Source of the DNA: a virus
Taxonomy: Duplodnaviria; Heunggongvirae; Uroviricota; Caudoviricetes
Reading direction: 5' to 3' (one strand)
Virus record (IMG/VR): IMGVR_UViG_648276647_000010
Coordinates: 1 to 6,943 of that record
Length of the DNA stretch: 6,943 nt
Below are positions 1 through 4,867 of the stretch, piece after piece. The translations under genes and the position numbers were made by a program. Within the stretch, counting starts at the first letter, position 1, and the number at the start of each line of letters is the position of its first letter. Under the pieces are notes generated by a model. That model saw only the letters and a program-made list of their open reading frames with translations. It was not told the origin of the DNA and did no database searches.

Positions 1-254
1 GGCTGATATAGCACCTGTTCTTAAGTTTATAGCGAATGGCCTTAATGGGCCGATATCACCGTTTTCGCCCTGTCCTTCAGCCGTCGGAATGAAATGAAGA
101 AAATCTTCTGAACGACGGAAAATAAGACCGAAGGCATTATTGAAAATTCGCAGCGCATTTATCGCGTCAATTTTCAGTTCTCCGGTCATTTTATCGCCTG
201 AACGCTGAACGGCGTTACCAGCCCTGTTTACCGTTTCCTGTAAACCGAGGTTTT
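1..254 (-). CDS. Phage tail-fibre variable domain (Mu S/S'-type exon inside the invertible G segment), partial; no own start codon, runs off the window edge
   Basis: Hand translation of the minus strand from 254 downward gives an uninterrupted frame to position 1 (NLGLQETVNRAGNAVQRSGDKMTGELKIDAINALRIFNNAFGLIFRRSEDFLHFIPTAEGQGENGDIGPLRPF...). It contains the SGDxMTGxL-type motif typical of phage tail-fibre proteins. The frame begins inside the gix site, as expected for a variable exon that is only expressed after inversion fuses it to a constant 5' part. Not in the supplied ORF track because it lacks a start codon. Confidence 0.55.
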
Positions 255-260
255 AGATAA
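235..260. other. gix-type 26-bp recombination (crossover) site for the Gin invertase; right boundary of the invertible G segment
   Basis: The sequence ttcctgtaaacc-ga-ggttttagataa (235-260) is an imperfect palindrome of two 12-bp half-sites around a 2-bp core. It matches the Gin/Hin/Cin/Pin crossover-site family and sits immediately upstream of the invertase gene, as in phage Mu. Confidence 0.7.
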
Positions 261-314
261 TGGCTGTTTCCGGCCTGCATGGCATGATTTGCGCTTTTAA
301 ACGGGAGATCCAGA

Positions 315-908
315 GTGCTGATTGGCTATGTAAGGGTATCAACAAATGACCAGAATACAGACCTGCAACGAAACGCTCTTGTTTGTGCAGGATGTGAACA
401 AATATTTGAAGATAAATTAAGCGGAACAAGGACAGACAGACCTGGATTAAAACGCGCTTTAAAGCGCCTTCAAAAAGGTGACACACTGGTTGTCTGGAAA
501 CTGGATCGCCTCGGGCGAAGCATGAAACATTTGATTTCTCTCGTAGGGGAATTACGAGAGCGAGGGATTAATTTTCGCAGTCTTACTGACAGTATTGATA
601 CGTCATCTCCAATGGGGCGTTTTTTCTTCCACGTTATGGGTGCCCTGGCTGAGATGGAACGAGAACTAATCATCGAGCGAACGATGGCAGGACTTGCTGC
701 CGCCAGAAATAAAGGCCGTATTGGTGGGCGACCACCTAAACTAACCAAAGCGGAATGGGAGCAGGCCGGGCGTTTATTAGCACAAGGAATCCCCCGCAAG
801 CAGGTTGCATTGATCTACGATGTGGCCCTGTCAACTCTGTATAAAAAACACCCCGCGAAACGAACGCATATAGAAAACGACGATCGAATCAATCAAATCG
901 ATCGGTAA
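315..908 (+). CDS. gin: Serine-recombinase DNA invertase Gin (G-segment invertase, Hin/Gin/Cin/Pin family)
   Basis: 197-aa ORF starting at GTG 315, with GGAGA Shine-Dalgarno at 304-308. N-terminus MLIGYVRVSTNDQ carries the catalytic Ser9 of the resolvase/invertase domain, and the C-terminus has a helix-turn-helix (GRPPKLTKAEWEQAGRLL...). The sequence matches phage Mu Gin as I recall it. In Mu the Fis-dependent recombinational enhancer lies inside the 5' part of this gene; I could not place it precisely by eye. Confidence 0.9.
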   Translation: MLIGYVRVSTNDQNTDLQRNALVCAGCEQIFEDKLSGTRTDRPGLKRALKRLQKGDTLVVWKLDRLGRSMKHLISLVGELRERGINFRSLTDSIDTSSPMGRFFFHVMGALAEMERELIIERTMAGLAAARNKGRIGGRPPKLTKAEWEQAGRLLAQGIPRKQVALIYDVALSTLYKKHPAKRTHIENDDRINQIDR

Positions 909-916
909 TACAGATC
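882..916. promoter_or_regulatory. Triad of Dam GATC sites upstream of the mom promoter (OxyR/MomR binding region when unmethylated)
   Basis: Three GATC sites at 882-885, 900-903 and 913-916, clustered in the 3' end of gin just upstream of the com-mom promoter. This matches the known Mu arrangement in which unmethylated GATCs permit OxyR repression of mom. Confidence 0.6.
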
Positions 917-965
917 GATTATGCCCCAATAACCACACTCAACCCATGATGTTTTTTAAGATAGT
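917..965 (+). promoter_or_regulatory. mom operon promoter region (Pmom) with putative C-activator binding palindrome and T6 spacer run
   Basis: Interrupted palindrome TTAT-gcccca-ATAA at 919-932 is a candidate C-protein site. A run of six T at 952-957 lies just upstream of the -10-like TAAGAT at 957-962, and the AGGAGG Shine-Dalgarno at 981-986 precedes the com ATG at 991. This matches the described weak, activator-dependent Pmom; exact -35/-10 assignment is uncertain. Confidence 0.5.
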
Positions 966-990
966 GGCGAATTGATGCAAAGGAGGTGAG

Positions 991-1179
991 ATGAAATCAA
1001 TTCGCTGTAAAAACTGCAACAAACTGTTATTTAAGGCGGATTCCTTTGATCACATTGAAATCAGGTGTCCGCGTTGTAAACGTCACATCATAATGCTGAA
1101 TGCCTGCGAGCATCCCACGGAGAAACATTGTGGGAAAAGAGAAGAAATCACGCATTCTGACGAAACCGTGCGTTATTGA
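991..1179 (+). CDS. com: Com, zinc-finger translational activator of mom
   Basis: 62-aa [37 protein letters not shown]... with Cys6/Cys9/Cys26/Cys29 forming the CxxC...CxxC zinc site described for Mu Com. Strong Shine-Dalgarno upstream, and the 3' end overlaps the mom start region as in Mu. Confidence 0.9.
1113..1135 (+). promoter_or_regulatory. mom translation-initiation stem-loop (Com-regulated); sequesters the Shine-Dalgarno and GUG start
   Basis: Perfect 6-bp inverted repeat tcccac (1113-1118) / guggga (1130-1135) around an 11-nt loop ggagaaacauu. The loop contains GGAG (1119-1122) and the stem contains GUG 1130-1132, in frame with the mom ORF. This matches the known mechanism in which Com binds just 5' of a hairpin to unmask mom initiation. 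Confidence 0.55.
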
Positions 1180-1846
1180 GTATGAAGGCCAGATTGTTGG
1201 CTATGGTTCAAAGGAGCTGCGCGTTGAAACCATATCCTGCTGGCTGGCCCGCACAATTATTCAGACAAAGCACTATTCCCGCCGTTTTGTGAATAACTCT
1301 TACCTCCACCTGGGAGTATTCAGCGGACGCGATCTGGTTGGCGTTCTCCAGTGGGGATATGCCCTTAACCCCAACTCAGGTCGTCGTGTCGTGCTTGAAA
1401 CGGATAACCGGGGCTATATGGAGTTGAATCGCATGTGGCTACACGACGACATGCCCCGCAACTCTGAATCACGGGCCATCAGCTACGCGCTGAAAGTTAT
1501 CAGATTACTGTATCCGTCAGTGGAGTGGGTTCAGTCCTTTGCTGACGAACGCTGCGGACGCGCAGGCGTTGTGTATCAGGCGTCGAATTTTGATTTTATT
1601 GGCAGCCATGAAAGCACGTTCTACGAGCTGGATGGTGAGTGGTATCACGAGATAACGATGAACGCGATTAAGCGAGGTGGACAACGAGGCGTGTATTTAC
1701 GGGCTAATAAAGAGCGTGCCGTGGTGCACAAATTTAATCAGTATCGCTACATCAGATTCCTGAACAAGCGAGCAAGGAAGCGGCTAAATACTAAGCTATT
1801 CAGGATCCAACCATATCCAAAATCAATTCTGACTGGTATCAAATAA
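1130..1846 (+). CDS. mom: Mom DNA-modification enzyme (adenine N6 acetamido/carbamoylmethyl modification; acyltransferase-like fold), anti-restriction
   Basis: The ORF immediately follows and overlaps com and has the Mu Mom-like sequence (…[40 protein letters not shown]…). I place the start at GUG 1130, which has a GGAG 7 nt upstream and sits in the regulatory hairpin. The ORF track extends it to ATG 1100, which lacks a Shine-Dalgarno. The exact start and the C-terminus relative to canonical Mu Mom are not verified. Confidence 0.8.
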
Positions 1847-1902
1847 CCTATTTGTTCCTGCTGAAAAACAGCCCCTCATGGCATAAAATTGTTCCCGTGA
1901 GT

Positions 1903-1942
1903 TTAAAATGACCAAGTGGCAGTGCATTATTTGGTCATTTTA
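1903..1942. repeat. Inverted repeat TTAAAATGACCAA-N15-TTGGTCATTTTA (12 of 13 bp symmetric), flanked by direct repeats GTGAGTTTAAAA (1897-1908) and GTGAGTTTTAAA (1947-1958)
   Basis: Seen directly in the sequence. It lies between the mom stop and the next gene. It could be an operator for the downstream gene or a weak AT-rich terminator for the mom transcript; the function is unknown. Confidence 0.4.
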
Positions 1943-1981
1943 TGGGGTGAGTTTTAAAGTCAAAACGATGGTAAGGTGCAT

Positions 1982-2317
1982 ATGAAAAAAATACTCACAG
2001 CAGTACTACTTTGCTTTGGTGTTCTTTCTGCTAATCAGGCAATAGCAGTTGTTACCTTAAGCGGTAAGTATCCAGCATGCATATCTGCTAATGAATTCGA
2101 GCGATTAAGTTCAATTTTGCAACACGAAGATCAAGAAGCATTTGAAGAGATCTTTAAAACATCATGCTTTATGCCTAAAAAGGGGCTAAAAGTTGATAAA
2201 GTGGTTTCTATGGGGTGGACCAGTGGGGTTGCGCATGTCAAAGTTTATGTGAAAGGCAATCTTTACGATCTTTGGACTAACACCGAAAATCTTCAGTCCG
2301 AGAAGGCTGGTAAATAA
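1982..2317 (+). CDS. Hypothetical small secreted protein (Sec signal peptide, ~90-aa mature domain with 2 Cys); AT-rich orphan gene
   Basis: ORF with ATG at 1982 (the track starts it at in-frame GTG 1976) and AAGG at 1973-1976. N-terminus MKKILTAVLLCFGVLSANQAIA is a classic signal peptide with an AxA cleavage motif. GC is about 38% over the first 120 bp versus roughly 50% in the flanking core genes. I recognise no family. Confidence 0.6.
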   Translation: MKKILTAVLLCFGVLSANQAIAVVTLSGKYPACISANEFERLSSILQHEDQEAFEEIFKTSCFMPKKGLKVDKVVSMGWTSGVAHVKVYVKGNLYDLWTNTENLQSEKAGK

Positions 2318-2460
2318 AGCAGTAGTCAACCTGTAATCACATCATCTACCAGCTATCGCCTGATAAAGTTAGGTGATAGCTATTTCAATACTCTCTGGTT
2401 TTACTGGAAGCACGAAACTTAATACTCCCATTCCTGATTGCTTAATAATCAAGCATTTTT

Positions 2461-2526
2461 ATCTTGAATGTTTTTGCTATCACACGCGATAGCCTATCTT
2501 GAATGATTTTCAAAAATATCTTGAAT
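2461..2526. repeat. Three direct copies of ATCTTGAAT(G/A) at 2461, 2497 and 2517, with a GCTATC-N6-GATAGC palindrome at 2476-2493
   Basis: Seen directly in the sequence, in the convergent intergenic region between the orphan gene and the 3' end of opgB. A further inverted repeat AGCTATC-N17-GATAGCT lies at 2352-2382. Confidence 0.35.
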
Positions 2527-2575
2527 AATTTTGCGCGCTTTACGCACCTTATGCGACCTACACATCAGTCAGGAA

Positions 2576-4867
2576 TTACCCTTCACGTTCTACCACTTTA
2601 ATTTCCACCATGCCGATCCCGAGCTTACGCGGCGAGTGCCCGAGGATATTCCCTTCGTTGGTTGAGACAGGTTCCGGCGGCACAATTACCAGTGTGTCGG
2701 CATCGGTTGGGTTATCGAAATGCAGTGTGGTGGTGGTCACTTCATTGCCCAGCACAAGGGTTTGTTCTTCATTGCCTACGCGTACCGGAATAGGACGGCT
2801 GGCGTTATTGCCGTATGCTTTGGCGGTAATCACCAGGTCAAATTTCTTCGGCAGCGGATGCTTGTACTCGATTTTTACTTCATCGCCCAGCTGTGCGTTG
2901 GACCAGCGGCCCCACGACTCTGGACGAGAAATCCCGCTAAACTGTTTCACCTCTTCTGGCGCACCAGCGACGTTAAAGATGAAACTGTCGGCTTTGTAGC
3001 GAATATCGTTATCAACAATCTTTAGCGTATCGACATTGCCTTTGTAACGCGCCATGTCGATGACCGTATCTTTAAATGCCGTTTTGCCCTTCCATATTGC
3101 TTTGTCAACATGCTGAACAATTTGCTGACCGCCAAGCTGCCCTTGCGAGACACACCAGTCGGTGGAGAGTGCCAGTTCCGGAGCCCAGAGTTGTGCCATC
3201 TTGTAGCAACGGTCAACCCAGACGAAATTGTCGCGTGGAGCGAAATCTGCCAGCTGGAAACGCAGCGGTGCTGAGTATTCGCTTTCCGGCAGCGGTTCCA
3301 CGCGTTTGTCTGAAACCCGCAACAGCAGCGGCAAACGGAAATGGCTACCTGAGAAGGCAATCATGTTTTTCTGCTGGTCGATGGTGAACTCTTTCATCTC
3401 TTTAGGGAATTTCCACAGGCGGATGATATCCGGCTTCCACGCCAATGTTTTCTCTTTGATATTGAGGAAGATTTCCGACATTGACTGCCCGGATAAACTG
3501 CTACGGCCAAGTCCGAGATAGTTATCGCCACCGAGAATGTCCAGCACCGTCGCGCCGTTATCCATCGTATTACGCTTCACTGCCAGCGTCTCTTGCTGCG
3601 GCTTGTCGCCACGGATGACAAAAAACAGGTTATTGCGATCCTGCTTATTAAGGTATTTCCACGCCGTATTGTTCATCGCTAAATGGTCAGAAGAGACGAC
3701 GATGACGGTATCTTTAAACCACGGTGACGCTTTGATTTTGTTGATAAACGTCGCAATATTCTCCTGGCTGCAACTTACCGCGCTGAATGACTGATTCGGC
3801 TTACCGTCAAAATCATATTTTTTGCGGTTACAGGTGCGCGAGATAAAACCATCCGGGTGATGGGTATCGACTGTCAGGGTAAACAGTGAGAATCGCTGAC
3901 CTGAGCGGGAAAGCTCTTCAAATTTTTTCCACGCTTCATCGAGAACGGTATCGTCGTAGAATCCCCAGTCGTTGCGATAGTGCGGGTCGGCCACCACGCT
4001 TTTCAGCTCTTCTGAGCCGTATAAGTGGTCGAAGCCGTGCGATTTCAGGAACACATCTTTACCGGCAAAACGCAGATTCGCGCCCTGCACGAAATAGTTC
4101 TGATAACCCGAGTTTTTCAGAATATCGCCCAGACAGATGTTCTGCGGGAAGAAGCTGGAGACAGAGGCGGAGGCGTTGCCTTCAAATGGGGCAAACAGCG
4201 GTATGCCGCACTGAGAAGCTACCATGCCCGCAATCGTGTAATCCGTTCCCGGCAGTTGCTGCGTGTGGCTGAAATCCAGGCCTTCATTTTTCAACGCGCC
4301 CAGTTCAGGCGTGAGATCCGGGAAAGCCTCGTTATCAAAATAGGTCCGCTCGAGACTTTCGCCGTAGATATAAACCAGGTTGAGTTTCGGGTCAGGGATA
4401 GTTCTCGACGGCTCTTTATAATAAGCCGCAAAGTCCGGGTCGCCGTCGCGTGACTGGGATTTCACCAGTTCCGTTATCTGACGAAATGCCGGGCTGGCAT
4501 CCACTGAACCCAGCGCCAGTAAGAGTGCCAGCAGGCTGTAACCAAAATGGTGCGGATGATGGCGACGACGGCGCAGGATCCAGCCCAGCGCACCGAACAC
4601 CGCCGTCAGCCCCAGCACAATGCCGATACCCGGCAGGATGTATTTGCTGACGCCAGCACCGGTCAGGCTGTTGGTTAAGGTATAGAGAACCGCGTCGTTA
4701 ATACCATCGCCAGTAAAATAGTCGCTGGCAAACAGGGTGATATTTAAAACGACAAATAGCCCCAGCACCGTTAACGTGGCTGCAAACCACCAGGTGTTAC
4801 GTCCCGCTTTCCATGCGTAAATCAGCACAGAGGCGAGAAAAAGGGCGAAAGAGAGTAGTTCTGACAA
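2576..4867 (-). CDS. opgB: Phosphoglycerol transferase I (osmoregulated periplasmic glucan biosynthesis; sulfatase/LTA-synthase-like membrane enzyme)
   Basis: 763-aa ORF with N-terminal transmembrane helices ([20 protein letters not shown]..., [15 protein letters not shown]..., [19 protein letters not shown]) followed by a large periplasmic sulfatase-type domain. Length and sequence match E. coli MdoB/OpgB as I recall it, and the position downstream of yjjA-dnaC-dnaT matches the E. coli gene order. Confidence 0.9.

Follow-up and report, generated by a model that had tools for sequence, protein, structure and literature searches.

The stretch of DNA analysed here (the window, 6,943 nt) is best explained as part of a locus at which a tail-fibre segment is inverted by the serine invertase Gin acting at gix sites, as in phage Mu, a reading to which we assign a probability of about 0.93. 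The locus is the known G-segment switch of Mu with a non-Mu fibre allele, and nothing in the switch itself is new. The window corresponds to positions 3-6945 of GL883893.1 (GCA_000176555.2) at 100% identity. Alignment of window positions 223-1815 gives 97.8% identity with phage Mu and 96-98% with D108, SfMu and Mu-like Yersinia phages; from these identities and the Pfam calls, the window can be identified as the right arm of a Mu-like prophage plus the junction with its E. coli host. The features are as follows, in window coordinates, with strand where assigned and basis in brackets.

1-252, minus: start-less open frame of 84 codons (translation), read as the 5' part of a silent variable tail-fibre exon, S'v-type (PHROG match, open codons, fibre of the relative L016)
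206-260: right copy of an extended inverted repeat of about 55 nt, with gix at its outer end (comparison with L016)
235-260: gixR, imperfect palindrome of 26 bp (25/26 match to Mu gixR)
247-248: central GA dinucleotide, putative strand-exchange point and right boundary of the invertible segment (Mu alignment)
253-255, minus: in-frame TAA immediately ahead of the silent exon, in the outer, non-inverting gix half-site (sequence; a minus-strand ORF in the ORF list ends at 253 in this frame)
315-908, plus: gin, serine DNA invertase of 197 aa with a GTG start (Pfam, alignment with Mu Gin)
991-1179: com (Pfam Zn_ribbon_Com)
1100/1130-1846: mom (Pfam Mom, E 3e-75)
1982-2317, plus: ORF of 111 aa, or 113 aa if a GTG start is used (ORF list; no family match)
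From 2543 on: E. coli chromosome with opgB, yjjA, dnaC and dnaT (100% identity to several E. coli genomes)

The site at 235-260 reads TTCCTGTAAACCGAGGTTTTAGATAA and the right gix of Mu, taken from the Mu record, reads TTCCTGTAAACCGAGGTTTTGGATAA; the sole difference is at position 255 (A for G), leaving 25 of 26 positions identical. The two half-sites, 12 nt each, agree at 7 of 12 positions, and the imperfect palindrome is centred on the GA at 247-248. With up to 3 mismatches allowed, the window contains no other match, and 200 dinucleotide shuffles yielded none at all; a second gix was absent from the window even at up to 5 mismatches. A chance palindrome was considered and is ruled out by the match to Mu gixR and the result of the shuffles. 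In a base-by-base alignment (Mu coordinate = window coordinate + 34777) the GA core falls on Mu 35024-35025, and 35025 is annotated as “G-segment boundary” in both Mu records. With this agreement in sequence and position, the original prediction that the 26-bp palindrome is a Gin crossover site is confirmed. The identical 26-mer lies upstream of gin in 15 related loci.

The site had also been placed directly upstream of gin, and this holds: 54 nt separate it from the gin start at 315, and the adjacent gene encodes a protein that agrees with Mu Gin at 192 of 193 residues, keeps Ser9 in MLIGYVRVS and matches the Pfam families Resolvase (E 7e-50) and HTH_7 (E 2.4e-17). Relative to Mu Gin it has four extra C-terminal residues (QIDR; 894-908), and the public collection contains exactly this 197-aa protein in 2538 indexed blocks. 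Of the 18 nucleotides at which the window departs from Mu over positions 223-920, 10 are concentrated in the 54 nt that separate gix from gin. Within gin no base differs from Mu over the first 123 nt (315-437), and up to 652 there are just 2 differences. The Fis-dependent enhancer of Mu is said to lie within gin (work ascribed to Kahmann et al. in 1985); as the 5' part of gin is nearly identical to that of Mu, whatever Mu carries there is conserved in the window. A scan of this region with the Fis consensus gave loose matches at 348, 385 and 408 and no clear pair spaced by 48 bp. No gin promoter was found in a simple sigma-70-like scan, which is too crude to show absence.

On the other side of the site lies the exon. 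The minus strand had been predicted to be open and start-less from 254 to 1. The missing start stands, but the coordinate does not: frames opened from 254 or 253 are both full of stops, and only the frame 252 to 1 is open in translation, with its first in-frame Met at codon 22 and thus no start of its own. Bases 1-248 of the exon lie inside the invertible segment, and the exon runs on past the left edge of the window. Its translation (NLGLQETVNRAGNAVQRSGDKMTGELK...) matched phrog_6859 (“tail fiber protein”, E 3.9e-44) and phrog_454 (E 3.6e-22) among the PHROGs, and a search of the 84 aa against Pfam gave no match. Alignment to the fibre proteins of Mu and P1, which had been proposed as a check, supports the predicted tail-fibre character as well: the exon is identical to residues 169-197 of Mu S, the stretch directly after the left gix of Mu, at 19 of 29 positions, and to the start of Mu S', again directly after gix, at 12 of 18 positions. 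Past the first ~29 aa the similarity to Mu S falls to just 34% identity over 62 aa. For the full-length variable part, taken from the closest relative (L016), identity is 91% to a protein encoded by vB_YpM_3 and vB_YpM_23, Mu-like phages of Yersinia pestis, 55% to some P2-like prophage fibres, and ~33% to P2 H and P1 S.

The single substitution in the site bears on the expression of this exon. On the minus strand, A255 in place of the G of Mu creates the in-frame TAA at 255-253, directly in front of the exon. Among 14 distinct relatives, gixR has A at 255 in 13, the exception being Mu itself, with G in both sites; gixL keeps G at the equivalent position in all 14, and the fibre gene reads CAA (Gln) there. 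Since the outer half-sites stay put on inversion, and gixL has G where gixR has A, the fibre always reads through CAA, and the parked exon always follows TAA. The exon can be identified as the start-less variable part of a tail fibre, apparently silent in its present orientation, and it would stay silent until the segment flips because it lacks a start codon and has an in-frame stop in front of it. A simple sigma-70 scan, too crude to show absence, detected no minus-strand promoter for the exon.

A programmed inversion would involve a second, inverted gix, which had been predicted about 3 kb to the left, outside the window. The source scaffold GL883893.1 starts only 2 nt left of the window and thus ends inside the invertible segment; with the left gix and the constant part of the fibre gene off the source scaffold, the intactness of the switch in the source genome is something we infer. 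A junction 40-mer had 0 matches in an exact scan of the genome contigs. The prediction was therefore tested in relatives, which were gathered by exact-protein look-ups (Gin, the 111-aa ORF and Mom) and by BLAST. An inverted gix was present within the fibre gene, 2834-3220 bp left of gixR, in all 14 distinct intact relatives (in the Mu record, the reverse complement of TTCCTGTAAACCGAGGTTTTGGATAA lies 3058 bp left of gixR). In the same 14 the segment contains two fibre 3' parts in opposite orientations, as well as a pair of oppositely oriented Caudo_TAP chaperone genes, and it is in these relatives only that the constant part of the fibre is seen. The closest of them, L016, is 98.4% identical to the window over positions 5-2543; its left and right repeat copies (the right copy corresponding to window 206-260) align over 55 nt with 2 mismatches, and the left-gix regions of L013, L015 and Mu likewise match window 206-260 in inverted orientation.

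The relatives also provide direct evidence of flipping. In E. coli Esc30 and Esc31 the prophage is inserted at one and the same position, in ldtD, and both strains encode the exact 197-aa Gin of the window. Their flanks are 100% identical (3.0 kb on the left and 6.7 kb on the right), and from one gix core to the other the 2985-bp stretch is 100% identical only if one of the two copies is reverse-complemented, vs 29% in direct comparison. Both orientations thus occur in otherwise identical genomes, and the inversion switch that had been proposed is borne out by a real flip, the observation being limited to relatives. The exon of the window adjoins gin in L016 and in Esc31 (L003), and Esc30 (L008), L010 and L014 have it at the left gix, joined to the constant fibre head. 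When the L016 segment was inverted in silico between the cores, the 460-aa fibre was replaced by an intact 511-aa fibre in which the exon follows ...LFIQ in frame; over the matching part of this simulated fibre the exon of the window is identical at 82 of 84 aa. Both the Esc30/Esc31 flip and the simulated flip of L016 fit an exchange at the GA core.

The same comparisons bear on an alternative in which gix, gin and the exon are real but the left part has been lost or disrupted in the source genome, so that neither inversion nor expression takes place. Exactly such decay is seen in two Shigella chromosomes (L007, CP026777.1; L009, CP000034.1), which have the exact Gin of the window with com and mom but IS elements in place of the segment; in both the second gix is absent, and an orphaned invertase is left with a single site. 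Moreover, a relative on an ENA metagenome scaffold (L006) has a rearranged tail region, about 4.5 kb (5456-9936) being rearranged compared to L011, and the source scaffold itself ends inside the segment. Against this, the 84 visible codons are intact and nearly identical to those of the closest intact relative, and gin, com and mom are each intact. Scaffold breaks at inverted repeats are, furthermore, expected for intact segments too. We therefore regard a decayed remnant as improbable compared to a working Mu-type switch. As to L006, its joints fall at the gix core and within the baseplate-J gene (...GTATCC/TCGG..., the slash marking the joint), and the rearrangement fits either a Gin inversion at a secondary pseudo-gix followed by a normal flip of the G segment, or a misassembly.

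Assemblies tend to break at the gix inverted repeat, which is why the source scaffold ends near the left edge of the window. Many short-read contigs of related prophages begin in or near the repeat (L021 and L030 at 225, L018 at 219, L033 at 227, L019 at 235 and L029 at 256, in window coordinates). The Logan contig L021 is identical to window 225-2600 and begins at 225. If Logan assemblies use k=31, as we presume, this start may hint at a graph branch against a gix copy that shares 225-254 and differs at 255, a break that would be expected if a second copy with such a difference were present, and one that would speak, if faintly, against the loss of the left part. The start of L018 at 219 fits an analogous branch where gixL differs at 249.

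The inversion of the Mu-type segment would proceed as follows. Gin dimers would bind the gix at 235-260 and the inverted gix about 3 kb to the left, and the two sites would synapse with the help of the host protein Fis, bound to an enhancer that lies in the 5' part of gin. Ser9 of Gin would then cut both sites (double-strand break) at the 2-bp core 247-248, and after a 180-degree rotation of one dimer pair the strands would be religated, so that the segment is flipped. The constant 5' part of the fibre gene, with its promoter and start codon, would sit left of the left gix, and each orientation would join a different 3' variable part, together with its own assembly-chaperone gene, to this constant head; the exon at window 1-248 would be the copy currently parked beside gin. 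A flip would alter the receptor-binding tip of the fibre and, through it, the hosts adsorbed by the progeny phage. The site, the identity of Gin, the fibre nature of the exon and its missing start are read in the window, and the second site, the in-frame fusion and the flip in its relatives; the dependence on Fis and the enhancer, the cleavage chemistry and the effect on host range would follow from established Mu biology (background on Gin, gix, Fis, the catalytic Ser9 and the 3-kb G segment from PMC3575834).

The inversion might also serve mainly the lysogen, the chimeric fibre blocking the adsorption of other phages. Such a role has been reported for PinQ and e14 StfE2, where an invertase of the Gin family, by its action on a prophage fibre segment, gives a chimeric fibre that inhibits adsorption of T2 (PMC12529663). 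The relatives, however, have complete Mu-type virion gene sets with the fibre genes in the late operon, and the window offers no hint of fibre expression in a lysogen. In favour of this role, Gin-family enzymes are known to cross-complement; even so, we consider a role mainly for the lysogen extremely improbable and retain the reading of a Mu-type switch of the phage fibre.

The right end of the prophage, beyond mom, is not that of Mu. The prophage ends at window 2542 (...TTTTGCGCGCTTTA) and host DNA follows from 2543, where independent insertions lose similarity. The junction 2542/2543 lies 33 nt downstream of the stop codon of opgB (2576-2578), and from 2543 the window is 100% identical to E. 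coli Rb-23, TUM14697 and 1002W03, which are without a prophage at this site. The canonical right end of Mu (attR with MuA-binding sites, terminal ...CGCCGCTTCA) is absent from the window. Instead, three TATCTTGAAT repeats precede the prophage end; the direct repeats TATCTTGAATnnTTTTGC occur three times, at 2460, 2495 and 2517, and the element ends in TA rather than the CA of Mu. Window 1847-2542 gave no match in searches of 50,697 phage records, the Yersinia phages among them and a sensitive search included, and it matches just 1 of 5426 complete E. coli genomes. We considered whether 1847-2542 might be a short insertion in an otherwise normal Mu end and rejected this for the present lineage, as at least 10 independent host insertion sites end exactly in ...GCGCGCTTTA without a Mu attR beyond. 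Two IMG/VR contigs from unrelated phages end in the same terminal 26-mer, and one of them has com-mom 89% identical to that of the window; no gix site was found in these two contigs. The TATCTTGAATnnTTTTGC repeats are probably binding sites for a transposase that is not of the Mu type.

Taking this non-Mu right end together with a late, gin, com and mom region that is 97-98% identical to Mu, we identify the prophage as a Mu-like mosaic and not as Mu (Muvirus sensu stricto) itself. Judged from the genomes compared, the lineage joins the Mu tail, G-segment, gin, com and mom module to a non-Mu end and a small cargo gene with a putatively secreted product, a combination that appears to be absent from the deposited phage records. 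The parked fibre allele is otherwise seen in phages isolated on Yersinia pestis. That the flip lets the phage alternate between host genera, and that the lineage transposes by means of a transposase and an end specificity unlike those of Mu, is a tentative and rather doubtful extension.

Several further observations concern this arm. At the C-terminus of Mom (1816-1846) there are 7 extra residues where Mu Mom ends in QPYPK, and the extension coincides with the end of the similarity to Mu. Between mom and the prophage end, the 111-aa ORF (1982-2317, plus) has a signal-peptide-like N-terminus, is preceded by a sigma-70-like site at 1861-1889, and belongs to no Pfam or PHROG family; just 24 contigs have the exact protein in the index. 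The ORF resembles a cargo (“moron”) gene with a putatively secreted product. In E. coli 2014C-3075 (NZ_CP027447.1; L002 8240-8413, L023) the non-Mu arm is present in a shortened version that has a single TATCTTGAAT repeat and the terminal GCGCGCTTTA. On one side of it lies mom; on the other come a second mom 3' remnant and then a canonical Mu attR. The attL of this prophage is canonical too, and its target duplication is TTCAG. The arrangement suggests a scar of past recombination, or of a nested insertion, involving two types of transposable phages.

Gin-mediated inversion of the G segment ranks among the founding examples of programmed DNA inversion, and the significance of a near-identical copy of this switch lies mainly in its correct annotation. 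In E. coli 2014C-3075 the parked fibre exon (L002 5148-6044) has been called a pseudogene by PGAP (“incomplete; missing N-terminus”). A parked exon should not be annotated as a pseudogene, and the PGAP call is a systematic mis-call for invertible fibre segments. The fibre alleles of such prophages, moreover, form a natural catalogue of receptor-binding modules common to Mu-, P2- and P1-like phages.

Among known systems, the G segment of Mu (S/U vs S'/U') is the closest. The gix sites agree at 25 of 26 positions and share the GA core located at the annotated boundary, the invertases agree at 192 of 193 residues, and the order silent exon-gixR-gin-com-mom is the same; the segments of the relatives (2.8-3.2 kb) contain two opposed exons and two chaperone genes as in Mu. 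The window differs in that its variable exon is neither S nor S', only the first 18-29 aa after gix being conserved, and in that A255 in gixR places a TAA before the silent exon, whereas the frame of Mu is open there. The 4 extra residues of Gin, the 10 substitutions in the spacer and the non-Mu right end of the prophage also set it apart. The Yersinia phages vB_YpM_3 and vB_YpM_23 share its fibre allele (91% aa identity) and the same gin, com and mom, and so do Esc31 and L016, in which the allele is 95-98% identical at the nucleotide level. Esc30 and Esc31, however, are without the arm of the window past mom (the Esc31 match ends at 1846), whereas L016 has the right end in common with the window, the match extending to 2543. 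In Esc30, L010 and L014 the same exon is in the other position, beside the constant part.

The more distant systems (Cin/cix of P1, Pin of e14, Hin/hix of Salmonella and the segments of P2-like prophages) share the principle of a serine invertase acting on two inverted 26-bp sites; in P1 Cin, e14 Pin and the P2-like segments it is C-terminal exons of fibres that are switched, Hin being the exception. P88-like and other P2-like phages match window 206-670 with 92-94% identity in their invertase regions. All of these systems are embedded in other backbones, and both the site and the enzyme of the window are far closer to those of Mu.
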